Both the position numbers and the translations under genes were made by a program. A stretch of DNA of 64,000 bases from Candidatus Limiplasma sp. (lineage in GTDB: Bacteria > Bacillota > Clostridia > Christensenellales > Aristaeellaceae): NCBI GenBank assembly GCA_963666755.2, contig CAXXGW010000002.1, positions 41,606 through 105,605 on the forward strand, written 5' to 3'. Each line of letters starts with the position of its first letter. The stretch's first letter is position 1. Shown in pieces: positions 1-61,971 of the stretch. Under the pieces are notes generated by a model, which worked only from the letters and a program-made list of their open reading frames with translations, was not told where the DNA came from and made no database searches.

Positions 1-1
1 C

Positions 2-91
2 ATCGCCCCCGGCACCCTGTGGGATCAGCTCCCCGAGGATTGGGTCTGCCCCCTGTGCGGCGCGGCCAAATCGGAATTCGAAGCGCAGTAA
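2..91 (+). CDS. rubredoxin, C-terminal fragment (5' end outside window)
   Basis: Frame 2 reads IAPGTLWDQLPEDWVCPLCGAAKSEFEAQ*. This is the conserved rubredoxin C-terminal DWxCPxCG iron-binding knuckle. Stop TAA at 89-91. Confidence 0.75.
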   Translation: MAPGTLWDQLPEDWVCPLCGAAKSEFEAQ

Positions 92-121
92 CCCCGCGGC
101 GGCACAGCCCGCCCGCTGGCA

Positions 122-333
122 AAGCCCGCGGCCTACGCCGCGGGCTTCAGCCTGCTGAAAAAGGCCATCTGCTTTGTCGCCTGCACCGGATCAGGGCGGT
201 CACGTACGTTCGTGTACGCTCCCGCCAAGATCCGGTTTGGCTTCGCGCATCTGAACCTTATTGAGCAGGCTGTATACCAGCTTCTTTATAGGTTTGTCAA
301 CGGCCTGAAGCCCGCGACCTACGCCGCGGGCTT
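122..333 (-). mobile_element. family-1 element copy 1 (148-307, reverse orientation), bracketed by a duplicated 26-nt hairpin (122-147 and 308-333)
   Basis: AAGCCCGCG[G/A]CCTACGCCGCGGGCTT occurs at 122-147 and 308-333 (25/26 identical). The 160 bp between them align along their whole length with 10713-10876 and 1487-1640. Confidence 0.6.
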
Positions 334-382
334 TGCCGTGCCCAGGCAAACCTCCGCCCCAAGCCCGGTCGTCAGCCCACCC

Positions 383-411
383 TTGCACAAACAGCCTGCG
401 CACGGTATAAT
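383..411 (+). promoter_or_regulatory. sigma-A type promoter for azlCD
   Basis: TTGCAC (383-388), 17-nt spacer, TATAAT (406-411), about 25-35 nt upstream of the azlC start. Confidence 0.65.
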
Positions 412-434
412 ACCAACCAATATCCGTAGCGGAG

Positions 435-1166
435 GTGAGCCCGGCTTTGAAAACCCTGCGTTTCGCGGCCAAGCAGATCGCGCCGGTGGTGTTTGCCTAC
501 CTGTTTGTGGGGCTGGCCAGCGGCCTGCTTTTACATAAGGCGGGCTACGGCACGGTGTGGGCGTTCCTGTCGGCGCTGTTCATCTACGCCGGCTCCATGC
601 AGATTGTGATGGTCACGCTGATGACCTCCGGCGCGCCGCTGTACCTGGTGGCTGCCATGACGCTGCTGATTAACGCCCGGCACATTTTTTACGGCATCAG
701 CTTTGTAGACGAGTTTCGCGCCATCGGGCGGCGCAAGGGCTGCGCGTGGATGTACCCCTACATGGCCCTGACCCTGACGGACGAAACCTACTCCCTGTTG
801 TGCGCCCTGAAAACCCCCGACACGCTGGATCGCGGCCGGGTGGAGTTTGCCATGCTCGCCATGTGCCACCTTCTGTGGATTGCCAGTTGCACCGCCGGTG
901 CGCTGATCGGCGGGATGCTCCCGGTGGATTTTGCCGGCATCGAGTTTTCCGCCACGGCGCTGTTTGTGGCGGTGGTCGTCAACCAGTGGCGGGAGGCCGC
1001 CTCCCACGTGCCCGCGCTCGTGGGGCTTGCCAGCGCGCTGCTGTTCTACCTGCTGCTGGGGCCGGATCAGATGATCCTCCCGGCGCTCAGCGCAAGCGTG
1101 GTCGCCCTCGCGCTGCTCAAAGACCGCATTGCCATGCGCAAGCCGGAGGCCAACGATGAATGTTGA
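435..1166 (+). CDS. azlC: branched-chain amino acid transporter subunit AzlC
   Basis: The 243-aa polytopic protein (…FIYAGSMQIVMVTLM…LINARHIFYGISF…) matches the AzlC family pattern and is followed by an overlapping azlD. The GTG at 435 abuts GGAGG, so TTG at 447 may be the true start. Confidence 0.85.
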   Translation: MSPALKTLRFAAKQIAPVVFAYLFVGLASGLLLHKAGYGTVWAFLSALFIYAGSMQIVMVTLMTSGAPLYLVAAMTLLINARHIFYGISFVDEFRAIGRRKGCAWMYPYMALTLTDETYSLLCALKTPDTLDRGRVEFAMLAMCHLLWIASCTAGALIGGMLPVDFAGIEFSATALFVAVVVNQWREAASHVPALVGLASALLFYLLLGPDQMILPALSASVVALALLKDRIAMRKPEANDEC

Positions 1167-1488
1167 ACTGCGTACCGCGGCGATCGTGGGCGTGATCGCG
1201 CTGATGACCTGGATCACCCGCGCCCTGCCTTACCTGCTGTTTTCCCGCAAGGGGCCGCCTCGGCTGGTCGCCTATCTTGGCGGGGCGCTGCCCGCCGCCA
1301 TCATGGTCATTTTGGTAGTGTACTGTCTGCGCAACACCGCCTGGACGCTGCCGCCGCACGGCGCGCCGGAGCTGATAGCCGTATTGGTGGTGGCAGGGTT
1401 GCAGGCATGGCGGCGCAACACCATCCTGAGCATCTTCGCGGGCACAGCGGTGTACATGCTGCTGATCCGCACGGTGTTTCCCCTGTAA
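1156..1488 (+). CDS. azlD: branched-chain amino acid transporter subunit AzlD
   Basis: A ~110-aa hydrophobic protein starting MNVELRTAAIVGVIALMTWITRALPYLLF. It overlaps the azlC stop, which is the typical azlCD arrangement. Confidence 0.8.
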   Translation: MNVELRTAAIVGVIALMTWITRALPYLLFSRKGPPRLVAYLGGALPAAIMVILVVYCLRNTAWTLPPHGAPELIAVLVVAGLQAWRRNTILSIFAGTAVYMLLIRTVFPL

Positions 1489-1640
1489 AGATAAACCTCT
1501 TACAGGCTTCCAACCAAGCCTGCTCAAAAAGGTCTGGATGCGCGAAGTCTAGCCGCATAAGGGCGGGAGCGTACACGGACGGACGCGACCGCCCTTTGCG
1601 GCATGGGCGACAAAGCAGACGGGCCTTTTTCAGCAGGCTG
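1487..1640 (+). mobile_element. family-1 element copy 2 (left end degenerate, overlaps azlD stop)
   Basis: Aligns with 10713-10876. It shares CTGCTCAAAAAGG…GGGAGCGTACACGGACG…GGCCTTTTTCAGCAGGCTG. The -35-like TTGACA is replaced by AAGATA. Confidence 0.55.
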
Positions 1641-1644
1641 CACG

Positions 1645-1684
1645 GCCCCCGAACCGCCTCCCGCGACGGTTCGGGGCTTTTTTT
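1645..1684 (+). terminator. rho-independent terminator
   Basis: GCCCCCGAACCG…CGGTTCGGGGC stem followed by T7 (1678-1684). Confidence 0.8.
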
Positions 1685-1837
1685 GCGCACTCTGGCCGTG
1701 CGCAGGCGCAACTTACCCGTGCAGCCCTTGCCTCCACGCCTTGTTTGCCGTATGCTGGGGATGTCGTACGGCGGTCGAACCGCCCTTGCACCCCCGGGCA
1801 CTCGCGTGCCGGGCAGACCAACCGCAGAGGTGAGCAT

Positions 1838-2686
1838 ATGATTACCGTGGAGAACCTTTCCTTCAGCTACACCCGCAACCCCTTCCTGCACAACGTGAAC
1901 TTTACCGTGCCGGACGGGCAGATTCTGGGCTTCCTTGGGCCTTCCGGTGCGGGCAAGAGCACGCTGCAAAAAATCCTGATCGGCATGCTGCAGGGCTACG
2001 GCGGCAGCGTAACCGTGGACGGGCGGGAGGTCAAGGCGCAGGGCAAGTCGCTGTACGAGCGCATCGGCGTGGTGTTCGAGTTTCCCACCCTGTATGAAAA
2101 GCTGACCGCGCGGCAAAACCTGGCCTTCTTCGGCTCGCTGTACGCGCAAACCCCGCGCGACTCGCAGGCACTGCTGGCCGCCGTGGGGCTGGGCCCGAGT
2201 GCCGACCAGCGCGTAAGCGAGTTCTCCAAGGGCATGAAAACGCGGCTCAACTTCATCAAATCGCTTTTGCAGGACCCGCAGTACCTGTTCCTGGACGAAC
2301 CGACCAGCGGGCTGGACCCCACCAACGCACAGGTGATTAAAGAAATGATCCTTGCGGAGAAGGCGATGGGCAAGACCGTGCTGCTGACCACCCATAACAT
2401 GCAGGACGCGGCGGAGCTGTGCGACCGCGTGGCCTTCCTGGTGGACGGCGAGCTGCGCGCGCTGGACACGCCCCGCAACTTTACCCTGCGCAACGGCGGG
2501 CGCACCGTCAGCTATACCTACCGCGAAGGCGAGGCGGAGCAAACGGGCGAAAGCGACCTGCTTCACACCGGGGCCGACGCGCTGCTGGCCCGGCTGGTTG
2601 CCGAAAACCGCCTGACCACCATCCACAGCCATGAGCAGACGCTCGGGGATGTGTTTATGGACGTAACGGGGAGGGTGCTGGCATGA
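1838..2686 (+). CDS. ABC transporter ATP-binding protein (ABC-2 exporter type)
   Basis: Walker A GPSGAGKST, signature FSKGMKTRL, Walker B LFLDEPTSGLD. AGAGG lies 8 nt upstream of ATG 1838. The longer ORF from 1745 has no RBS. Confidence 0.9.
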   Translation: MITVENLSFSYTRNPFLHNVNFTVPDGQILGFLGPSGAGKSTLQKILIGMLQGYGGSVTVDGREVKAQGKSLYERIGVVFEFPTLYEKLTARQNLAFFGSLYAQTPRDSQALLAAVGLGPSADQRVSEFSKGMKTRLNFIKSLLQDPQYLFLDEPTSGLDPTNAQVIKEMILAEKAMGKTVLLTTHNMQDAAELCDRVAFLVDGELRALDTPRNFTLRNGGRTVSYTYREGEAEQTGESDLLHTGADALLARLVAENRLTTIHSHEQTLGDVFMDVTGRVLA

Positions 2687-4118: not shown

Positions 4119-4144
4119 AGCAATAGGGGGAAGCAAACCCCCGT

Positions 4145-4646
4145 CCCCCGCCACAGCGGAAAAAGGGTCAAGGGCAAAAGCCCTTTCGGGGTCTGGCGCC
4201 GGAGGGAAGCGTACGGCCGGCGGCCGCTTCGCCGAAGGCGAAAGCGACCCGCAGGCGGGGCGCGAAACGAGCATGCAAACGGCAGTGCTGCCTGCGAAGC
4301 TAGAACGCCCGGAGTAGGCCCCTAAAATTCCCATACCGCAGCATGCAGCCGCAAGCAAGCGCACAGCCCGAAGGGCTATGAGGCGAACGGTACAGGTGCA
4401 TCACAGAATGAAGCAATCCATCCCGCGCGGCGCTTCCGTCCCTTTGGACGGAAGCGCCGCGTTCGCCTGCCGTTATCCCCCGCCACAGCGGAAAAAGGGT
4501 CAAGGGCGAAAGCCCTTGCGGGGTCTGGCGCCGGAGGGAAGCGTGCGGCCGGTGGCCGCTTCGCAGAAGGCGAAAGCGACCCGCAGGCGGGGCGCGAAAC
4601 GAGCAGGCAAACGGCAGTGCAGCCTGCGAAGCTTGAGCGCCCGGAG
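4145..4646. repeat. B-type mosaic hairpin-module repeats (two ~170-bp units, 332-bp period)
   Basis: 4145-4313 and 4477-4646 are near-identical (CCCCCGCCACAGCGGAAAAAGGGTCAAGGGC…GGCGCCGGAGGGAAGCG…GCGAAAGCGACCCGCAGGCGGGGCGCGAAACGAGC…). A 15-bp perfect hairpin lies between them at ~4426-4461. Related modules occur at 35040-35170 and 58254-58395. Confidence 0.85.
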
Positions 4647-4805
4647 TGGAGCCCCAAACCTCACCCGGGTTGCACCTTCGGAACCGAACAAGGGATTTCA
4701 TCCCCTGACCCATAAGATTGGCAAACTGCCGCAAACGCACCTCTCCCCCGCCCCAATCCCCGCGCTTCACGATTGCAAAACCTTTGGCGCAGGCGTTTCC
4801 ACCGT

Positions 4806-4896: not shown

Positions 4897-5691
4897 ATGA
4901 ATGTAAACGTTGCCAACCTTTATACGGCGCAGGCCGTCGGCCCGATCATCGCGGTGGTGGTCGCGCTGGTGGGCGCGGTCGCCGCGGCGCTGCTGTTCTT
5001 CAATGCCAAGCGCCGTACCCAGTACCGGGGTCTGCTCAAGCGCATCGGCGCGCATGTCAATTTCGACCGGTTCCTGCTGTCCTCCATCCTTAAGTTTCTG
5101 TATGTGTTTGTGGCGCTGTACTGCATGGCGTACGGGCTGGTGGGGCTGTTTACGGGCGCCCCGCTGGCGGGCCTGCTGTGGCTTGTGCTCGGCCCCGTAA
5201 CCGCGCGGGTGGTGTTTGAGCAGCTGCTGTTGCTTTTGTCCCTGCACGAGCAGCAGGGCGAAACCAACGATCTGCTGCGCCGTATGCAGGGTCTGCCGCC
5301 CAAGGCCGCCATGCAGCCACAACCCCAGCCGCAGCCGCAACCCCAGCCGGTACCCAAGCAGCCGAATCGCAGCCAGCCCGTCGACCCACGCTATCCGCCG
5401 CGGCCCGTCGCCTACCCGCAGCAGAACACCGGGTTTAACGGCTACACTGCGCGCCCCAACCCCGCGCCCGCCTACCCCGCCGAGTACGGCATGACCCAGC
5501 GCTACGCCCCCATCCGGCGCGAAAGCTACGGCGGCTACGAGCCGACCGGCTACGGCGCGGCCGCGGGAGCCGCCCCAGGCGCCAACCCACCCCCGGTGGT
5601 GCGCCCCACCCCCGCCGACGGCACAGGCCGCTTTTCGGCACTGCCCATGCAGGCCGAGCGGGACGAGCGCCCCAGCCCGAAAAAGAAGTAA
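4897..5691 (+). CDS. DUF4282-like membrane protein with Pro/Gln/Tyr-rich C-terminal tail
   Basis: The N-terminal part (…HVNFDRFLLSSILKFLYVFVALYCMAYGLVGLF…VVFEQLLLLLSLHEQ) resembles the DUF4282 pattern. The tail contains (PQ)5 and P/Y-rich low-complexity sequence. Confidence 0.6.
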   Translation: MNVNVANLYTAQAVGPIIAVVVALVGAVAAALLFFNAKRRTQYRGLLKRIGAHVNFDRFLLSSILKFLYVFVALYCMAYGLVGLFTGAPLAGLLWLVLGPVTARVVFEQLLLLLSLHEQQGETNDLLRRMQGLPPKAAMQPQPQPQPQPQPVPKQPNRSQPVDPRYPPRPVAYPQQNTGFNGYTARPNPAPAYPAEYGMTQRYAPIRRESYGGYEPTGYGAAAGAAPGANPPPVVRPTPADGTGRFSALPMQAERDERPSPKKK

Positions 5692-5760: not shown

Positions 5761-5863
5761 TTCCCGGATGCAACAAAAACCGCCCGCGCAACGTCTCTTG
5801 TTGGGAGCCGCCTGCTGTGCGGCCGCAAAAATCAGCTCACCGTTGAAGGAGGAATCTTTCTTG

Positions 5864-8161
5864 ATGTTAAAACGCGCGTTCGCCCTGCTGATGACGCTTT
5901 GCCTGGCACTGGCCGCCGTGGGGCCCGCCGCCGCCGAGGCGCAAAACGCATCCTTCTACCTGCAATCCTACAGCGCCAGCGCCCCCGCGGAGGATAAGCG
6001 CGTAACCGGCGGCACCGCCCTGGGCGATACCCTGTATATCATGACCGGCAGCACTCTGGAAAGCTGGAAACCCGGCGAGGCGGAGCCGACCGTCCTTGCG
6101 GATGCGGTCGTTAACGCCGATTATATTAGCCCAGATGAATCCGACAAGGCGGAAAGCACCGGGGACGCCGTCTACAACCGGCTGCTGGCATACGGCAACG
6201 CCTTGTACGGCCTTAACCTGAACGACGGCAAGCTCTGGAAGCTGGTTGACGAAACCGGCTACCTCGCCAAGCCCGTGGCGCAAACCCCGCTTGCGTGGGA
6301 TAAGGTCTCCCGGACAAGCACAGACGGGGATTATACCTATGTTCCGCAGTTCAACGATTTTGCCGTGGTCGGGCAGACCCTCTACGCGTGCGCCGTCGAT
6401 TGGAACAACTCCGACCCGGCGTATGAGGTGTTCGGCTGGGCGCTGGATACCGGCGCAATGACCCTGCACCGCACCGATCTGGCCCTGCGCACGATGGACG
6501 CGTACCGCGACGGGCTGCTGATCGGCAAACAGTACGACGATACCAAAAGCTGGGACGAGGCCACCCAGACCCAGCTGATGCCCAACCTGATTACGCTGGA
6601 CCCCGCCACCGGCGAAACCAAAACCCTGTTTGCCTTTGAAGGCGCAGACATCTACGGCGTGCGCTACAACGCCGCCAACGATACGCTCTATTATGTAAAC
6701 GGCTCCAGCGTTTACAGCATGGCCGGGCTGCAACAGCCAGCCAAGCTGAGCGCCTACCTGCCCAACCGCGTCTGGGAGGATGCGCGCATCTGCCTGCTGG
6801 ACGGCAACATGTACGCTGTGATGGACAGCAACGGCGTGGTGGTGCGCGGGCTGGATATGCCCGGCATCGAAAACGGCGCGCTGACCATCTACGGCGAATA
6901 CGGCAGCGCCGGGCATCAGGCCTACCTGAAAGCCTACCCGCAGGCGCTGGTCACCTGCTCGGAGGATTATTACAACGATCTGGAGGAGTTTACCAACGCC
7001 ATGGTGGCCGGCACCAACGCGGTGGACGTGCTGCGCCTGAGCACCGACTACTCCCCCTTTACCCGGCTGGTGGAAAAAGGTTACGCGCTGGACCTGAGCC
7101 CCTACCCGGAGCTGACGGCCGCCGTACAGGCCATGGACCCGAACCTGACCCGTTTGTGCTACCAGGACGGCAAGCTCTACGGCGTGCCGGTGGAGATGTA
7201 CGCTAACTGCTTCGGCTACAACACCGAAGCCTGGAAGTCCCTCGGGCTCACGGAGGACGATCTGCCCAAGACCATGCTGGATGTGCTTGATTTCCTGCAA
7301 AACTGGCAGGCCGATTACGGTGAGGAGCATACCGACCTGATGCCGCTGGACGTGGGCGACCTGCGCACCACGGTAATGGATTGGATTCTTACCGCCTATG
7401 TGGCCCAGTCCGACGCCAAGGGGGAAGCCCTCTCCTTTGACACGGAGCTGTTCCGCAAGCTCCTGACCGCGATGGAGGCCATCGACTTTACCGAGCTGCA
7501 GCCCGAAGACTCCAATGCCGACAGCGATTACTGGAACCGTACGCCGGTCATGTCCGTTTACATGACGGCTACCTACCCCGGCCAATACCGCTACAACACG
7601 ATGCAGCTGCTGCCTCTGCCGATCGACGAGGGCATGGACCCCGTGCTGCCCGTGAGCCTGCAGCTGTTCATCATCAACCCGCGCACCACCCATCTGGATC
7701 AGGCGGTGCAGTACCTGACCACCTACGTGCAGAACCTCGCGCCCGAAAGCGAAGGGATTACCCTCTACCCAGACCACAACGACCCGGTTGTGAACCAGAG
7801 CTTTGAAAGCGACCTCAAAGGCTGGAAAGACAGCGTCGAAACGGTTACCAAACAGCTGGAAACCGCCAAGCCGGAGGAGAAAGCCTCCCTGCAAAACGAT
7901 CTGGATTACCTGAACAAGCTGATTGCCAATGCGGATGACGACCGGTATCTGGTTTCCGCCAAGGCGATTGAGCAGTACCGTACGCAGATTGCGCCCTGGC
8001 TGGTGGTTGGCGACCAATCCCCGCTCAAGGTATGGGGCAAGGACGGCTCCAACGAGTTCAGCACTCTGGAAAACCAGTATATGGACGGCGCCATCACGCT
8101 GGATACGTTCGTCAAGGAGATGGACAAGCGCATCCGCATGATGCAGCTGGAAGATCAGTAA
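5864..8161 (+). CDS. double-size extracellular solute-binding lipoprotein (N-terminal repeat/propeller-like domain + family-1 SBP domain)
   Basis: Signal peptide MLKRAFALLMTLCLALAAVGPAAA. The C-terminal ~430 aa look like an ABC sugar SBP (ALTIYGEYGSAGHQAYLKAYP…VDVLRLSTDY…KLYGVPVEMY). GAAGGAGG lies upstream. Paralog of 8301-10628. Confidence 0.75.
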   Translation: MLKRAFALLMTLCLALAAVGPAAAEAQNASFYLQSYSASAPAEDKRVTGGTALGDTLYIMTGSTLESWKPGEAEPTVLADAVVNADYISPDESDKAESTGDAVYNRLLAYGNALYGLNLNDGKLWKLVDETGYLAKPVAQTPLAWDKVSRTSTDGDYTYVPQFNDFAVVGQTLYACAVDWNNSDPAYEVFGWALDTGAMTLHRTDLALRTMDAYRDGLLIGKQYDDTKSWDEATQTQLMPNLITLDPATGETKTLFAFEGADIYGVRYNAANDTLYYVNGSSVYSMAGLQQPAKLSAYLPNRVWEDARICLLDGNMYAVMDSNGVVVRGLDMPGIENGALTIYGEYGSAGHQAYLKAYPQALVTCSEDYYNDLEEFTNAMVAGTNAVDVLRLSTDYSPFTRLVEKGYALDLSPYPELTAAVQAMDPNLTRLCYQDGKLYGVPVEMYANCFGYNTEAWKSLGLTEDDLPKTMLDVLDFLQNWQADYGEEHTDLMPLDVGDLRTTVMDWILTAYVAQSDAKGEALSFDTELFRKLLTAMEAIDFTELQPEDSNADSDYWNRTPVMSVYMTATYPGQYRYNTMQLLPLPIDEGMDPVLPVSLQLFIINPRTTHLDQAVQYLTTYVQNLAPESEGITLYPDHNDPVVNQSFESDLKGWKDSVETVTKQLETAKPEEKASLQNDLDYLNKLIANADDDRYLVSAKAIEQYRTQIAPWLVVGDQSPLKVWGKDGSNEFSTLENQYMDGAITLDTFVKEMDKRIRMMQLEDQ

Positions 8162-8300
8162 CTCCCCCCCTTTGCGCAAACTGCCACATCCGCGCGGACA
8201 TTTCGTCCGCGCGGAACCTGTTTATGGACAGTCGGGCAACCCCCGGCGGCCGTCTGTGCTATAATCAGCGTATCTTCGAATCAGGAAAGGATGAGCACCC

Positions 8301-20821: not shown

Positions 20822-21784
20822 ATGCCGACCGTACTGCTGACCGCCATAGGCTCCGCCGCGGCGCATGCTGCCCATACGGCCCTGACCGCCGCGGGCTGCC
20901 GGGTGCTCGGCTGCGATATTTATCCCCGCGCCTGGAACGTGAACGCCATGGAGATGGAACCGTTCCTGAACGTGCCTCCGGCCACCGATGCGGAGGCCTA
21001 CACCGCAGCGCTGCTGGACGCCGTGCGCGCCTACGGCATCCAGGCTATCCTGCCCCTGACCGACGTGGAGGTGGACGTGCTTTGCACCCGTAAGCCTGCC
21101 TTTGCAGCGCTGGGCGCGACCGTCTGCTGCCCCGAACCCGCCGTGGCCGACCTTTGCCGCGATAAGCTGCGCATGGCGCAATCGCTGGATGCGGCGGGGC
21201 TGTGCGACGTGATCCCCACATGGACGCGCGAAACCCTCCCGGCGGAGCCGCCCTACCCGCTGCTGCTCAAACCCCTGCGGGGCCGCAGCAGTCAGGCCCA
21301 ACAGGTGGCGGACGATGCGCAGGCGCTTACCCTGGCGCTCAGCCAGCGGGCGGATTACATCCTCCAGCCCTATTGGCCCGGCGACGTATACACCGTCGAT
21401 TGCGCCCGCGATGCGCAAGGCAACACGGTTACCCTGACCCGCCGGGAGCGCCTGCGCACTGTGAACGGGCTTGGCACCGCGGTGGAAATCTGCCCCGCCC
21501 ATCCGCTGGACGCGGTGTGCCGCGGCATACTGGCCCATGTAGGGCTGGTGGGCGTGGTCAATATGGAGTTTATCCGCCGTGGGGATACCTACCGCTTTTT
21601 AGAGGTCAACCCCCGCTTTTCAGGCGGGGTTGGGTTCAGCCTGCTGGCGGGGTATGATTTTGTGAATGCCATGCTGCGCTGCCACGCGGGGTTACCGCTG
21701 GTACCGGCTCCGGTTTTCGCGCCGATGACGCTGGCACAGCGCTATGAGATGTGTATCACGCGCCGGGGCGGAGAAGATCAGTAA
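20822..21784 (+). CDS. ATP-grasp domain enzyme
   Basis: ATP-grasp layout (…PLLLKPLRGRSSQ…, …VVNMEFIRRGDTYRFLEVNPRFSGG…). GGGAGGG lies 7 nt upstream. Confidence 0.8.
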   Translation: MPTVLLTAIGSAAAHAAHTALTAAGCRVLGCDIYPRAWNVNAMEMEPFLNVPPATDAEAYTAALLDAVRAYGIQAILPLTDVEVDVLCTRKPAFAALGATVCCPEPAVADLCRDKLRMAQSLDAAGLCDVIPTWTRETLPAEPPYPLLLKPLRGRSSQAQQVADDAQALTLALSQRADYILQPYWPGDVYTVDCARDAQGNTVTLTRRERLRTVNGLGTAVEICPAHPLDAVCRGILAHVGLVGVVNMEFIRRGDTYRFLEVNPRFSGGVGFSLLAGYDFVNAMLRCHAGLPLVPAPVFAPMTLAQRYEMCITRRGGEDQ

Positions 21785-21788
21785 AAAT

Positions 21789-22385
21789 GGGTCAAGGGCC
21801 AAGGGCCCTTGTCAGGTTTCCAAAGGGTGAAACCCTTTGGTAGGTTTGGGCGAAGCCCATGCCCTCAGCCGCAGCGAGAGTGCGCAGCGCGCGAACAGCG
21901 CCAAAGGCGCTATGAGGCGCGCGGGGATAGAAATAAGCCGCATGAAAGCAAAAAGGGGGTCAAGGGCCAAGGGCCCTTGTCAGGTTTCCAAAGGGTGAAA
22001 CCCTTTGGTAGGTTTGGGCGAAGCCCATGCCCTCAGCCGCAGCGAGAGTGCGCAGCGCGCGAACAGCGCCGCAGGCGCTATGAGGCGCGCGGGGATAGAA
22101 GCCTGCCTCATGCAAGCGGTAGAAGCTGGTTAGGTGCCATCTCCTTCCCCGTATAGGGCAAAACAAGGCTCTTGAATACAACCAGAAAGGCCGGGGCGAT
22201 CGCCCCGGCCTGTGCTGTTTCACTTTGGAAGGGTTCAGGCCATGAGCCGTACCCGCGCGCCTCATAGCGCCTTCGGCGCTGTTCGCGCGCTACTTTTTTG
22301 GGGTAGATCCGGGGGACGCAGGGGTTTCACCCCTGCACCATGACAAGGGCTTCGCCCTTGACCCCTCTCCGCTGCGGCGGGGGGC
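21789..22385. repeat. A-type mosaic hairpin-module array: 2 tandem 168-bp units, central hairpin, 1 inverted variant unit
   Basis: Units start at 21789 and 21957 (GGGTCAAGGGCC…TTTCCAAAGGGTGAAACCCTTTGG…GCGCGAACAGCGCCnnnnGGCGCTATGAGGCGCGCGGGG). The central GGCCGGGGCGATCGCCCCGGCC is at 22189-22210 and the inverted variant at ~22252-22385. Confidence 0.9.
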
Positions 22386-22420
22386 TTGTGATTCTACCCT
22401 TACACCTATTTTCCACTTGC

Positions 22421-26037: not shown

Positions 26038-26059
26038 GGGCGGAATGGGGACAGCGGGA

Positions 26060-26805
26060 AACCGGGTCAAGGGCCGCTGGCCCTTGTCAGGTTTCCAAAG
26101 GGTGAAACCCTTTGGCCCAGCCGCAGCGAGAGTGCGCAGCGCGCGAACAGCGCCGCAGGCGCTATGAGGCGCGCGGGGAAAGCGCTTTGCTTGCATTATG
26201 GAATGTACCTTGCACCCGCCGCAACGGAACCGGGTCAAGGGCCGCTGGCCCTTGTCAGGTTTCCAAAGGGTGAAACCCTTTGGCCCAGCCGCAGCGAGCG
26301 CGCGCAGCGCGCGAACAGCGCCGCAGGCGCTATGAGGCGCGCGGGGAAAGCGCTTTGCTTGCATTATGGAATGTACCTTGCGCCCGCCGCAGCGGAACCG
26401 GGTCAAGGGCCGCTGGCCCTTGACAGGTTTCCAAAGGGTGAAACCCTTTGGCCCAGCCGCAGCGAGCGCGCGCAGCGCGCGAACAGCGCCGCAGGCGCTA
26501 TGAGGCGCGCGGGGGCGGACACCAGCCCTATGCTAGCGGTAGAAGTCGGTTAGCTACCGTATCCTTCCCCGTATAGGGCGGAACAAGGCTCTTGAATGCA
26601 ACCAACAAGGCCGGGGCGATCGCCCCGGCCTGTGCTATTTGACTTTGGAAGGGTTCAGGCCGTGAGCCGCACCCGCGCGCCTCATAGCGCCTTTGGCGCT
26701 GTTCGCGCGCTACGTTTTTAGGGTGAATCCGGGGGACGCAGGGGTTTCACCCCTGCACCCTGACAAGGGCTTTCGCCCTTGACCCTTTTCCGCTGCGGCG
26801 GGGGC
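26060..26805. repeat. A-type mosaic hairpin-module array: 3 tandem 168-bp units, central hairpin, 1 inverted variant unit
   Basis: Unit starts at 26060, 26228 and 26396 (exact 168-bp period). The central GGCCGGGGCGATCGCCCCGGCC is at 26609-26630 and the inverted variant at ~26672-26805. Confidence 0.9.
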
Positions 26806-26840
26806 TATGCAATGAACAGCTCTCTGTCCTTCTCTCCCCT

Positions 26841-28655: not shown

Positions 28656-29342
28656 TCAGGCGTTGGGTTCGGGTTCGCTCCAATGGACGCGCTCCACCCC
28701 GGGCAGGCCGCGCAAGGCGCGCCACAGGCGGCGCTTGGGGTTTACGGCCACCGGATGGGCGCACAGGCGCAGCATGGGCAGATCGCCGTAGCTGTCGCCG
28801 TAGGCGTAGGAGTTATCCACATCCAGCCGATCGCCCTTGGCAGCCAGATACTCGGCCAGCCGCAGGGCTTTCTGCACCCCGCGGCAGTTATCGCCGCACA
28901 CCTGCCCGCGAAACACGCCGTCCGCGTCAGGGTCAAAGCGGGTGGCAATCAGATCGTCCACGCCCAGCGCGGGCACCATGAACGTCAGGTAAAAGGTAGA
29001 GCTGGCCGAAACCAGCAGCGTCACGCGCCCCTCGGCCTTATGGCGGGCAATGGTTGCAAGCCCCTCGGGGCGGAGGCGCGGGCGCAGCACCGTATCGCAA
29101 AAGTCGCGGGCAATCGCCTCCACCCGCGCCGCGGGCAGCCCGGCCAGAAAGCGCAGCGCGCGCTCCTTGGCGCGCACGGCGGGGCAGAGCTTGAGGCCGT
29201 ACAGCACGGCCGTCCACAGCCCGGCCGCCAGCTGGCGGCGGCTCATCAGCCCCTTCTGAAAAGCGTAGCGGCATAAAAGCAGGATGGAATCGCCGCGGAT
29301 CAGCGTTCCGTCAAAGTCAAACAGAGCATAAGTTTTACACAT
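28656..29342 (-). CDS. HAD-IB family hydrolase (phosphoserine phosphatase-like)
   Basis: MCKTYALFDFDGTLIRGDS is HAD motif I. A later YGDSYGDLPML contains motif IV. The upstream extension to 29444 is unsupported. Confidence 0.85.
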   Translation of the reverse strand: MCKTYALFDFDGTLIRGDSILLLCRYAFQKGLMSRRQLAAGLWTAVLYGLKLCPAVRAKERALRFLAGLPAARVEAIARDFCDTVLRPRLRPEGLATIARHKAEGRVTLLVSASSTFYLTFMVPALGVDDLIATRFDPDADGVFRGQVCGDNCRGVQKALRLAEYLAAKGDRLDVDNSYAYGDSYGDLPMLRLCAHPVAVNPKRRLWRALRGLPGVERVHWSEPEPNA

Positions 29343-29550
29343 GGGGTAGCCATCCCTTCGAACCCTTTGCGCGTACGCGGGGGCACCGCGCACCTGCACC
29401 CCAGTATAGCACGCAAGGCCCCGCGTTGCCAAGCCCGCGCACAACCTGCTGTGCTTGACACTCCTGCCGGTTTGTGTTACCTTCGTGTACGGAATGGCGT
29501 TCTATTCGGCCGTATCATCCGAAGCATACCGCACGCAGGGAGGCGTTTGT

Positions 29551-34980: not shown

Positions 34981-35019
34981 ACTCTGAAGCCATCTTCACA
35001 AGGCGATCAAAATGGAGGT

Positions 35020-35660
35020 GCAGGAGGCACTGCCTCCTGCCGGGGCTTGGGCGCCGGAGGGAAGCGTGCGGCCAGTGGCCGCTTCGCCGCAGGCGAAAGC
35101 GACCCGCAGGCGGGGCGTGAAACAAGCAGGCAAACGATAGTGCAGCCTGCGACGTTTGAACGCCCGGGTCAGAACCCCAAACCCCAACGCCGCAGCGTTA
35201 CTCCCAAAGCGAGCGAACAGCGCCGCAGGCGCTATGAGGCGAGCGGCAAACACACATTGCTGTATATTTGTTTACAGTAGCATAGCAGTGCAGGAGGCAG
35301 CGCCTCCTGCCGTTTCTTGTGTGCCCAAGAGCACGCATCCCGCAGGCTAAGCGTAAAGCAAGCATGCAAATGGCAACACAGCCAAAAAGCATGAACGCCC
35401 GGGTCAGAACCCCAAACCCCAACGCCGCAGCGTTACCCCCAAAGCGAGCGAACAGCGCCGCAGGCGCTATGAGGCGAGCGGCAAAACACATTGCTGTGTA
35501 TTGTTAACAGAAGCATAGAAGTGCAGGAGGCAGCGCCTCCTGCCGTACCTTGTGTGTCCAAGAGCACACGTCCCGCAGGCGGGGCGTGAAACGAGCAGGC
35601 AAACGGCAGTGCAGCCTGCGAAGGTTGAACGCCCGCATCAGAACCCCAAACCCCAACGCC
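35020..35660. repeat. mosaic repeat array with GCAGGAGGCAG(C/T)GCCTCCTGC hairpins (three units)
   Basis: The hairpin occurs at 35020-35040, 35290-35310 and 35523-35543, and again at 45770-45790. Units combine a B-type module, CAGAACCCCAAACCCCAACGCC and GCGAGCGAACAGCGCCGCAGGCGCTATGAGGCGAGCGG. Confidence 0.85.
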
Positions 35661-35823
35661 ACAGCATAGCCCTCAAATCGCACAAGTAACGCAAAGGGAC
35701 ATGCAGTGCACTACGACCAACCCTGCCGGTTATAGTAACAAAATCGCCCGCACTGACTGGAGTGCGAGCGGTTTTTATGAATGAGGAGCCTCGTGCCATT
35801 GTGAACCCTGAATCGCGCCCTTT

Positions 35824-41478: not shown

Positions 41479-41647
41479 GGCGGTTCTCCTTTACTCTGCG
41501 CCCCCAAACCGCTTGCCGAGGGGGTGCAAAAGCACCGCGCACGGGAAGGCGCGTTCAGGAACGGTGAATCTTTTATGCGGCTGCGGCGGGCTGCCCTGCT
41601 GTTTGTTACAGTCGCGGCAGCACGTCGGTACGCTCCCATCGGATCGT

Positions 41648-41695
41648 TGCCATTATATTGTGTTGCAAACGGGATGTCAATACCATATCTAGAGT
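41648..41695 (-). promoter_or_regulatory. two candidate NrdR boxes overlapping the nrdD promoter
   Basis: On the minus strand: ACACAATATAATGGCA (41648-41663) and ACTCTAGATATGGTAT (41680-41695). Each is ~12/16 to the NrdR-box consensus acaCwAtATaTwGtgt. Their starts are 32 bp apart. Confidence 0.5.
41652..41680 (-). promoter_or_regulatory. consensus sigma-A promoter of nrdD
   Basis: On the minus strand: TTGACA (41675-41680), 17-nt spacer, TATAAT (41652-41657). This implies a ~165-nt leader. Confidence 0.8.
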
Positions 41696-41812
41696 TTTAT
41701 GTAACCTCCGCGCTGCAAATATGAAGAATAAATGAAGAATATAATGGCTTTTTATGGTTTTCCGCAGTTTTTCCTTGCGAAAATATTTTTAATCCATGGC
41801 GTTTTCCTTACG

Positions 41813-45535: not shown

Positions 45536-45674
45536 GCTGCGCGCATGCGGGCGGCTTCACCATGCGGTGCGTCGGGATGCTGTCCGGCACAGCTGGTTAT
45601 AAAGTGAGGCTATGTGCCAGACTAGTCTAAAGGAACGGCGCGGAACTACAACCGTTGTGAGAAACGGCAAAGCA

Positions 45675-45790
45675 CTACCGCCGCTCGCCTCATAGCGCCT
45701 GCGGCGCTGTTCGCTCGCTTTCTGGTTTACGCTGCGGCGTTAAACTTTGAGGCTCCGCCTCAAACTCCGGCAGGAGGCAGTGCCTCCTGC
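45675..45790. repeat. solo mosaic repeat modules
   Basis: CCGCTCGCCTCATAGCGCCTGCGGCGCTGTTCGCTCGC plus the GCAGGAGGCAGTGCCTCCTGC hairpin (45770-45790). Both are shared with the 35-kb array. Confidence 0.8.
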
Positions 45791-57747: not shown

Positions 57748-58185
57748 CTGTGGCTTGAACGTTTTGCATCCACCATTTGCGCCGGTGTGCAACAGGAGCA
57801 TTCGCTGTCAGGCAAGGGCAAAGCGAATAACAACTCATACGTTTTTCGCAGAATAAGGGCATGGCTTCTGGCTCGTTTACGCGCGGTTGGGCAGGCATTG
57901 CACTTGAAATATCGTTCCGTGCGTCCTGAGACGCAGCCCGGCTGATCGCCTTGGAGGCGCGGCGCATGCCATCGGCTGTGCCGGTGGTTTTCATTTGCGG
58001 AAATCGCTTCGGCGCCGTAAACCCGCACGCTCCACAGGGGGAGCGCTGTCTACGGCAGGTTCGGCGGCGCGGCGGTGGCCGCCGTAACCCCGTACGCCCC
58101 ACAGGGGGAACGCCGCCCAGACACACGGGGCCGAATCGCGGTTGCCGTGTGCGTTCAGACTGTCAAAAAACTCAGCAAATCGCTA

Positions 58186-58395
58186 CTGCCGCTCGCCTCA
58201 CAGTGCTTGCGCTGCTGTTCGCCCGATTGCGCCATATGTTGCGATAAAAAACTTTGGGGCTTTGCTCCGGGCGTTCAAGCTTCGCAGGCTGCACGGACGT
58301 TGGTCTGCTCGTTTCACGCCCCGTCTGCGGGTCGCTTTCGCCTGCTGCGAGGCGACCCCTGCCGCACACTTCCCTTTGGCGGCAAAACCTCACCA
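58186..58395. repeat. solo mosaic repeat modules (degenerate A-type piece + inverted B-type module)
   Basis: CCGCTCGCCTCACAGTGCTTGCGCTGCTGTTCGCCCG, then the reverse complement of the B-type module (…GCTCGTTTCACGCCCCGTCTGCGGGTCGCTTTCGCC…). Confidence 0.75.
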
Positions 58396-61019: not shown

Positions 61020-61039
61020 TCATTATAGGCGGAAAAAAA

Positions 61040-61950
61040 CGGGTCAAGGGCCGCTGGCCCTTGCGGGGTCTGGGGCAGCGCCCCAGCGTACCCCGGGCTT
61101 TCTCAAAAAGCGTAGCGAGCGAACAGCGCCGCAGGCGCTATGAGGCGAGCGGGTGCGGCCCACAGCCTGAGCCCTTCCAAAGTTAAATAGCACAGGCCGG
61201 GGCGATCGCCCCGGCCTTGTCTGTTGCATAAAATAGCTATTCTCTCAGTGCGGATAAGGATGCGCCCTTGCCCCGATGCAGCCTGAGCAATCCATGCAGC
61301 CCGCCCCCGCGCGCCTCATAGCGCCTTCGGCGCTGTTCGCGCGCTACGCACTCTCGCTGCGGCTTGGGCCAAAGGGTTTCACCCTTTGGAAACCTGACAA
61401 GGGCCAGCTGCCCTTGACCCATTTCCGCCGCGGCGGGTGCAATGTACCTTCCATAATGCATGCAAAGTGTATTCCCCGCGCGCCTCATAGCGTTTTCGGC
61501 GCTGTTCGCGCGCTACGCACTCTCGCTGCGGCTGGGGCCAAAGGGTTTCACCCTTTGGAAACCTGACAAGGGCCAGCGGCCCTTGACCCGTTTCCGTTGC
61601 GGCGGGTGCAAAGCATCTTCCATAATGCACGCAAAGTGTATTCCCCGCGCGCCTCATAGCGCCTGCGGCGCTGTTCGCGCGCTACGCACTCCCGCTGCAG
61701 CTTGGGCCAAAGGGTTTCACCCTTTGGAAACCTGACGAGGGCCAACGGCCCTTGACCCGTTTCCGCTGCGGCGGGCGCAAAGCACCTTCCATAATGCACG
61801 CAAAGTGCTTTCCCCGCGCGCCTCATAGCGCCTCCGGCGCTGTTCGCGCGCTACGCGCTTCGCTGCGGCTGAAGGCCTTGGGCTTCGCCCAAACCCACCA
61901 AAGGGTTTCACCCTTTGGAAACCGGACAAGGGCCAGCGGCCCTTGACCCA
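61040..61950. repeat. A-type mosaic hairpin-module array, mirror arrangement: 1 variant unit, central hairpin, 4 tandem 169-bp units in reverse orientation
   Basis: The central GGCCGGGGCGATCGCCCCGGCC is at 61195-61216. CCTCATAGCG landmarks fall at 61314, 61483, 61652 and 61821 (exact 169-bp period). Confidence 0.9.
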
Positions 61951-61971
61951 TTTCTTCTCTATCTCCCCTGT

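Follow-up and report, generated by a model that had tools for sequence, protein, structure and literature searches.

A repeated ERIC-related hairpin element inserted at terminator hairpins in Candidatus Limiplasma

[quoted passage not shown] They are co-transcribed with their neighbours and have an orientation-dependent effect on mRNA stability (PMC2229807, PMC10969869). Here we describe a repeated hairpin element, family-1, from a 64-kb stretch of DNA of Candidatus Limiplasma sp. (contig CAXXGW010000002.1, positions 41,606 to 105,605; referred to below as the window). The element is related to ERIC, is structured in a strand-specific manner, and has recently inserted at terminator hairpins, duplicating them. 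It is probably a distant relative of ERIC/IRU, and its ~125-nt core may be regarded as the Clostridial version of the imperfect palindrome. The hosts, which are Clostridia, Terriglobales metagenome-assembled genomes (MAGs), and soil and sediment metagenomes, lie outside the range described for ERIC.

Several other bacterial repeats are likewise small, intergenic, multi-copy and hairpin-forming, namely Correia/NEMIS, RUP and YPAL, which are co-transcribed MITE hairpins, and REP/BIME. They too sit at the 3' ends of genes or in intercistronic gaps, such as those following binding-protein genes, but none has sequence similarity to family-1. Correia elements duplicate TA and contain IHF sites. REPs are ~35 nt in length, are linked to RAYT transposases and have no target duplication, and a REP/BIME-RAYT identity was dropped because the family-1 hairpin is 125 nt long, has no 5' GTAG head and comes with target duplications.

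Three copies of family-1, numbered by position, are present in the window; copy 2 is the one in 1487-1684. Copies elsewhere that share the body of the window copies are termed class A, and those with the same apex on other bodies are termed non-A. A sequence-only reading of the window had reported the three copies and their near-invariant apex, and this apex holds in 45 class A copies as well. The 26-nt apex pattern, GGGAGCGTACACGRACGKACGYGACC, has three matches in the window and none in shuffled sequence, and the three copies can be aligned with one another over ~125-160 nt. The features are as follows.

122-147: target duplication of copy 1, left, 26 bp, AAGCCCGCGGCCTACGCCGCGGGCTT; terminator hairpin 3' of the rubredoxin gene, one such hairpin being present in the metagenomic relative L116
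148-307, minus strand: copy 1, complete, 160 nt; both borders set by the empty site in L116
307-273, minus strand: left terminal repeat and 5' extension of copy 1, followed by the hairpin core (272-148) with the apex (223-198)
308-333: target duplication of copy 1, right, 26 bp, AAGCCCGCGACCTACGCCGCGGGCTT
1490-1640, plus strand: copy 2, with a 5'-truncated extension; hairpin core 1517-1640, apex 1565-1590
1646-1684, plus strand: hairpin and T-run 3' of copy 2, from a terminator scan
10687-10713: target duplication of copy 3, left, 27 bp, CGCCCGCCGCACCCGCGTGCGGGCGGT
10714-10874, plus strand: copy 3, complete, 161 nt; between a solute-binding-protein gene and ABC permease genes
10714-10748, plus strand: left terminal repeat and extension of copy 3, followed by the hairpin core (10749-10874) with the apex (10798-10823)
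10877-10909: target duplication of copy 3, right (10877-10903), with the T-run; the original terminator tail

Copy 1 lies between the rubredoxin gene and azlC. Copy 2 begins GATAAACCTCT, 2 nt past the azlD stop codon, and has no flanking duplication.

Relationship to ERIC sequences

The shared architecture of the apex and the 3'-arm motif CAACGCAG led to a test of the relationship with ERIC/IRU in both directions. One covariance model, R1, was built only from the 45 class A copies, none of which is enterobacterial, and a second, R2, only from 11 enterobacterial ERICs. The test set consisted of the ERIC in the ybhJ-ybhI spacer of E. coli and ten independent plasmid-borne ERICs (Salmonella, Citrobacter, Pantoea, Klebsiella, Lelliottia, E. 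coli and Rahnella). When R1 was run against both strands of 50 kb of E. coli, the ybhJ-ybhI ERIC ranked first with 21.3 bits and an expectation value (E) of 0.0025, the next match having an E of 0.33. This match was full length, on the correct strand, and had the exact ERIC borders. R1 also recovered 9 of the 10 plasmid ERICs in their exact place and strand (best 39.2 bits, E 5e-8; seven with E <0.01), and no other sequence fell below E 0.8 in that search.

In the reverse direction, R2 was run over both strands of the window with filters off and E up to 5. Exactly three matches were obtained, and these are the three copies, each on its own strand: copy 1 (E 6e-5), copy 3 (20.2 bits, E 1.3e-3) and copy 2 (14.2 bits, E 0.12). 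The corresponding R1 scores are 131 bits (E 1e-30) for copy 1, 146 bits (E 2e-34) for copy 2 and 140 bits for copy 3. Other classes of the family are also matched by R2, among them L066 (E 3e-12), four tandem units of L007, and L052, L090, L057 and L044. Based on these reciprocal covariance-model matches, the element was assigned to the ERIC repeat superfamily. A possible fourth copy in the window at 29241-29356 (R1 E 0.024) was rejected; it falls within a long open reading frame (ORF) on the opposite strand (28656-29444) and the motifs are absent.

The two elements have much of their plan in common. The cores are alike in length (~125-127 nt; ERIC 127 bp), each forms one long hairpin, and the apex in both consists of tandem G.A followed by a 6-bp stem closed by G.U (GAGCnUAn...nUAnGUGA). 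The same purine-rich internal loop, with GCAGGAAGGCG facing CAACGCAG, is found in both. ERICs are likewise intergenic, often located at stop codons and multi-copy, and they show an excess of G.U on the same strand as class A. According to a model-guided alignment, the modules common to class A and ERIC are a 5' loop (GYUGCRRGG-CG-NC), the apex (GGAGCnUAnA...nUAnGUGA) and a 3' loop (CAAC(G/A)(C/A)AGC). Covariation within the superfamily extends to the apical stem, where one position is U-A or A-U in ERICs and G-C in class A.

In contrast, the sequence has diverged, class A reading GAGCGUAC...GUACGUGA where ERIC reads GAGCUUAC...GUAAGUGA, and the apex sequence of class A is invariant and unlike that of ERIC. 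Class A has an additional 35-nt 5' extension with a terminal repeat, and its ends are CAGGCCG...CAGGCTG, whereas ERIC has TATAC...GTATA termini. Tandem arrays are a further difference. The contig with the family member in L066 also has a second long hairpin (L066:1302-1418, minus strand; R1 18.3 bits, E 0.028), with the same internal-loop motifs ACAAGG-CA... / UAACACAGUAG and a different, short apex. Since this hairpin keeps the internal loop with another apex, the internal loop may be more widespread than the apex.

The element had initially been described as belonging to no recognised riboswitch or small RNA (sRNA) family. This is true of Rfam at gathering thresholds, where the window and 20 related loci gave only tRNAs, but the reciprocal models place it in a described superfamily. 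Relaxed Rfam thresholds gave nothing relevant in window positions 1-2000 and 10 related loci, and a tRNA/tmRNA scan of the window found a single tRNA-Leu, located elsewhere. ERIC copies themselves (L107, L118, L119, L121) have sub-threshold, full-length matches on the GGAGC strand to RF02818 (V_AS5) and RF02766 (Ysr49), with scores of 33-47 bits compared to gathering thresholds of 95-96. The former is a Vibrio antisense RNA and the latter a Yersinia sRNA; both are narrow models typed as RNA genes, and judging from these matches both appear to be transcripts of ERIC copies. Neither matched the window copies or other non-enterobacterial classes at E up to 1-10.

A number of other identities were considered and dropped: group II intron domain V, where the pairing does not fit; retron msr/msd, since no long ORF able to encode a reverse transcriptase was seen directly 3' of the copies; integron attC, as the conserved part here is the apex rather than the base and the arrays are without ORFs; a sigma-54 promoter in AGGCACAGCTTGC, where the spacing is 3 nt short; and coding potential of the apex, in which variable positions are 4 nt apart and not 3.

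Insertion at terminator hairpins

The site of copy 1 can be compared with an empty one. In the metagenomic relative L116, whose AzlC is 95% identical, a lone hairpin, CAAAGCCCGCGGCCCCGTGCCGCGGGCTTTG, is found at this position. The filled site in the window has AAGCCCGCGGCCTACGCCGCGGGCTT (122-147), then the 160-nt element (148-307), then AAGCCCGCGACCTACGCCGCGGGCTT (308-333), and the 26-bp duplication around the element is the whole terminator hairpin. The precise borders between empty and filled site demonstrate that the element is mobile, rather than being a fixed sRNA gene; the sequence-only reading had proposed a small structured-RNA gene. Copy 3 has a 27-bp hairpin on both sides, of which only the right-hand one has retained the T-run. 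The more distant syntenic loci L109-L115 have neither copy 1 nor copy 2, and copy 3 is absent from the same spacer in L127-L131 (permease identity 92-93%).

This pattern extends to other members of class A. Junction-anchored duplications of 19-40 nt were found for 13 of the 30 full-length copies, as against 0.45% of 2000 mismatched flank pairs, and in nearly all class A copies the 5' end of the element abuts the 3' foot of a hairpin. Being 160 nt long and non-coding, with three copies in 11 kb and >45 copies in related genomes and metagenomes, family-1 has several features of a MITE. We therefore favour the view that it is a non-autonomous MITE of ~160 bp, which inserts at the foot of intrinsic-terminator hairpins.

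Duplication of an entire terminator hairpin (19-40 bp) sets class A apart from ERIC, where TA is duplicated (PMC2229807). A comparable insertion behaviour is summarised for IS1630, an IS30-type element of Mycoplasma fermentans, which targets and duplicates inverted repeats, leaving duplications of 16-26 bp (PMC3317919, citing Calcutt et al. 1999). In that summary, as in class A, the duplications vary in length and sequence and the targets are palindromic. The likeness is limited to insertion behaviour, for IS1630 is autonomous, 1.2-1.4 kb in length, and has a transposase gene and 27-bp terminal repeats. For family-1, a transposase might be supplied in trans and would cut the DNA in a staggered fashion on both flanks of the target palindrome, as IS1630 is reported to do.

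The presence of hairpins on both sides of the insertion means that the supposed terminators of copies 1 and 3 are target duplications, derived from the terminator hairpin of the upstream gene, and not part of the element. The hairpins with T-runs that had been noted after copy 2 (1646-1684) and copy 3 (10877-10909) are real, but the one after copy 3 is not the element's own. That after copy 2 is most likely the azlCD terminator, outside the element, because element-free relatives have a hairpin and T-run between azlD and the ABC gene.

An alternative is that the hairpin is a terminator, attenuator or regulator binding site of the host, acting in cis and duplicated by ordinary recombination without being mobile. 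Its position downstream of genes and beside terminators would agree with this, as would the location of copy 3 within an ABC operon, where its neighbours are the binding-protein gene on one side and the permease genes on the other, and the T-run that follows the hairpin on the gene strand in L006 and L014. However, the neighbouring genes are functionally unrelated, and precise borders together with target duplication distinguish empty from filled sites. Moreover, compensatory changes are seen across the superfamily even in the apical stem (U-A, A-U and G-C at one position), and retention of pairing through such changes argues against recognition as double-stranded DNA. We regard this explanation as highly improbable.

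The closest relatives of the window genes are from MAGs of Eubacteriales, Oscillospiraceae and Ca. Limiplasma; an exact-protein look-up of AzlD returned no record. Upstream of copy 3 there are two adjacent large solute-binding-protein genes (5768-8161 and 8301-10628), probably paralogues, the second of which is followed by the element. A stretch of 125 nt at their 3' ends (8051-8175 and 10518-10642) is 80% identical. The window also contains other intergenic repeat families at 21780-22400, 26057-26811, 61034-61960, 4144-4690, 34999-35720, 45667-45755 and 58175-58360, including tandem units of 168/169 nt with common modules, for instance GCCTCATAGCGCCTKCGGCGCTGTTCGC and GGGTCAAGGGCCnnnGGCCCTTG, which appear in either orientation. 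On these repeats neither the class A model nor the ERIC model had a significant match.

Hairpin structure, distribution and the question of an sRNA gene

The core of 125-126 nt (148-272, 1517-1640 and 10749-10874) folds as a single long hairpin. On the element strand, which is the one reading GGAGCGTACACGGACGTACGTGA, the fold of copy 3 has a predicted energy of -79.1 kcal/mol (z -10.9), compared to -60.6 for the opposite strand; for copy 2 the value is -79.5 kcal/mol (z -9.4). From base to tip, the hairpin comprises a basal helix, a purine-rich internal loop (GAUGCGNGRA facing RACAAMGCAGA), a variable covarying helix, and an apex that runs from two G-C pairs through tandem G.A to a 6-bp stem with a closing G.U pair. 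Pairing of the 5' and 3' ends, which had been predicted from the window copies, is present as the basal helix CTGCTCAAAAAGG / CCTTTTTCAGCAG.

To assess covariation, the 45 class A copies, all different and collected from other genomes and from metagenomes, were aligned. The consensus hairpin has 42 pairs, with 95.8% of cells paired and double-sided changes in 24 of the 42 pairs, so the central stem with compensatory changes that had been reported from three copies is kept across all 45. All five measures of pairing were better than in every shuffle (0 of 500 as good), and when the 3' partners were slid by 1-3 columns as a control, pairing was merely 33-44%. Within helices G.U outnumbers A.C by 175 to 32 (95 to 31 when the two fixed G.U pairs are omitted), and among 91 copies drawn from all classes there are 85 in which the apex strand gives a more stable fold than its complement. 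Taken together, pairing, compensatory change, the excess of G.U and the asymmetry of the fold indicate that the structure is real, conserved and one-stranded. One class A copy (L010:4417-4556) has the 26-nt apex inverted, the body scoring 113 bits on the minus strand while the exact apex pattern is on the plus strand. It has the appearance of a loop that was flipped when the two hairpin arms recombined.

Scans for the exact apex pattern gave 20 loci in GTDB species genomes and 86 in metagenomes. There was no apex copy in viral contigs, and thus no sign of a link to phage. About half of the apex loci are class A, and these are from Oscillospiraceae/Eubacteriales MAGs and from anaerobic-digester and gut samples. 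Dozens of further copies in related Eubacteriales/Oscillospiraceae genomes occur singly or in head-to-tail arrays with a period of 129-130 nt. Arrays of family members include L007:145-672 (four units), as well as those in L021, L009, L029, L003 and L098, and their units are connected by a short linker, CAGGCCGCCAACCG, similar to a left terminal repeat in reduced form. The same apex is carried by clearly different bodies in further Clostridia MAGs, in two MAGs of Terriglobales (L011, L017, L018), and in gut, soil, rhizosphere and sediment metagenomes; several of these non-A classes are multi-copy within one assembly, and some form tandem pairs.

Among the single-copy classes no recurrent neighbour gene was seen, the neighbours including queA, tgt, and ORFs of widely varying length. 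A non-A member overlies the last codons and stop of queA at L001:~5100-5237 (minus strand), L006:440-577 and L014:7456-7593. It is in the same place in three MAGs that differ in G+C (50-61%), tgt being the next gene in L006 and L014, and the last queA codons contribute to the basal helix. Such a pattern would be expected from long-term retention, or else from several insertions at one site.

Orientation relative to neighbouring genes was examined with the apex strand taken as plus and with crude, ORF-based gene calls. The right-hand neighbour is on the opposite strand at 43 of 45 non-A loci (p 6e-11) and at 32 of 38 class A loci (p 2e-5), although not all loci are independent and the p-values are therefore indicative. 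In 31 non-A loci the stop codon of the neighbour is 60-91 nt past the start of the apex, which corresponds to the 3' foot of the hairpin. Of the three window copies, only copy 1 conforms to this rule. The strong bias is another difference from ERIC, as the 11 enterobacterial ERICs often abut stop codons, but on either side.

The orientation bears on the proposal that the copies are stand-alone sRNA genes, each with its own sigma-70 promoter (TTGACA-N18-TATACA), a discrete RNA of ~125 nt acting in trans, and its own terminator. The primary 5' end would then be near CAGCCUGCUCAA / CAGCCUGCUC on the GGAGC strand. Most copies are convergent with the right-hand gene, as an independently transcribed antisense RNA would explain, and the strand with TTGACA is the better-folding one. 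The sub-threshold matches of ERICs to V_AS5 and Ysr49, both RNA-gene families, are on the same strand.

The promoter itself gives a divided picture. Copies 1 and 3 do contain the string TTGACA-N18-(T/G)ATACA, as the sequence-only reading had stated, and it includes an extended -10-like TGG(T/G)ATACA. On the other hand, TTGACA is located inside the left terminal repeat and was found in only 16 of 28 distinct 5' extensions, and none of the 28 has a sigma-70 -10 box (A2/T6 at 16-19 nt). At the position of (T/G)ATACA most copies read AGGCAC or AAGCAC. A promoter scan made no call at copies 1 or 3, and copy 2 is entirely devoid of a -35. Hence the promoter is not a property of the family, and may be a weak, lineage-specific one. 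The duplicated target hairpins on both sides of copies 1 and 3 deprive these of terminators of their own, and insertion polymorphism among close relatives and tandem arrays without a promoter-like spacer are further arguments against genes of this kind. We consider stand-alone sRNA genes quite unlikely.

A resemblance to the nrdD leader had also been proposed. It is confined to a 10-mer (GGGAGCGTAC) and a 7-mer (CGACGTG), neither model matches there, and it is treated as chance. The region itself (41560-41700, minus strand, the strand earlier called the nrdD leader) has a near-consensus promoter, TTGACA-N17-TATAAT. This overlaps an AT-rich, palindrome-like sequence, ACACAATATAATGG, and is followed by a leader of ~100 nt that contains GGGAGCGTAC and has no Rfam match.

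Possible function and significance

On balance, our preferred interpretation is a Clostridial ERIC-type mobile hairpin with a role at the RNA level; any specific RNA mechanism is held with much less confidence. After insertion, the element would be transcribed within the 3' untranslated region (UTR) or intercistronic RNA of its neighbours, or as antisense from the other strand. The conserved hairpin could then serve as a determinant of processing or stability at gene 3' ends, as reported for Yersinia ERICs. There, ERICs are co-transcribed, and the upstream mRNA is destabilised in an orientation-dependent manner when ribosomes expose an RNase E site (PMC2229807, PMC10969869). That many family members are placed at stop codons is in keeping with the part played by ribosomes in this model, and the 3'-UTR or intercistronic position of the copies would be compatible with co-transcription. 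Because the apex and internal loop have been conserved from phylum to phylum, a conserved partner that would read both is implied.

A different possibility is that family-1 is purely selfish palindromic DNA, with the hairpin and apex serving only in transposition, for example through recognition of a cruciform or folded single strand by the transposase, and with no function as RNA. Mobility and target duplication have been demonstrated, the multi-copy and tandem organisation is in line with this, the inverted apex in L010 is as expected from recombination between arms at the DNA level, and G.T wobbles stabilise single-stranded DNA too. However, the core is conserved while the ends differ between ERIC (TA duplication, TATAC) and class A (hairpin duplication, CAG...CTG), the opposite of what would be expected if the core served one transposase. 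The queA-tgt copy has also been kept at the same site in the diverged MAGs L001, L006 and L014, and transcription of ERICs, with an effect on mRNA stability, has been reported (PMC2229807). Selfish DNA without RNA function thus seems to us unlikely.

Several points weigh against an ERIC-type mobile hairpin with an RNA role. About half of the full copies have no recognisable duplication. The terminal inverted repeat, although conserved across copies, is weak: when the 3' end is reverse-complemented (CAGCCTGCTGAAAAA), 11 of 15 positions agree with CAGGCCGTTGACAAA. Neither the window nor any fetched locus yielded a transposase or an autonomous partner with matching ends; in the window neither end of the element (left CAGRCCGTTGACAAACC, or the 3' end) occurs elsewhere, and left-end matches that lack a body, as seen at fetched loci, look fortuitous or like truncated copies, none of them resembling part of a larger element. 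Classical ERICs duplicate TA and not a hairpin (PMC2229807), so family-1 differs from them in its mode of mobility, and covariation in palindromic DNA can also come from DNA-level processes. As the better-folding strand is antisense to the abutted gene in most loci, the fit to a simple sense role in the 3' UTR is poor. Finally, Firmicutes generally lack RNase E, so that the Yersinia mechanism is not transferable as such.

The architecture and loop motifs shared across hosts, the covarying helices, the invariant apex and the strongly biased placement at stop codons of convergent genes speak for selection on a function of the folded strand and against a decaying transposon relic. Strain typing has made use of ERIC repeats for decades. 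What is new here is an ERIC-type core in a new host range, with a different shell and a different mode of insertion. This mode is unusual for a MITE, in that the entire intrinsic terminator is duplicated and each insertion adds an extra terminator-like hairpin. The added hairpin could alter read-through or operon polarity, for example at the copy between the binding-protein and permease genes (10.7 kb). For annotation, such elements call for caution because they can pass for sRNA genes with a promoter and terminator.

More tentatively, ERIC-type hairpins might be ancient, cross-phylum modules of single-stranded nucleic acid, read by a conserved partner and repeatedly acquired by different transposition shells. 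In this possible scenario the phyla would be Clostridia, Acidobacteriota, Gammaproteobacteria and unassigned soil and sediment bacteria, and the Clostridial shell would be one that hops into terminator hairpins and duplicates them. The occurrence of the family gives many independent lineages in which to search for its partner. If the scenario is true, the module would be a functional RNA able to position itself, in antisense, at the 3' ends of genes.

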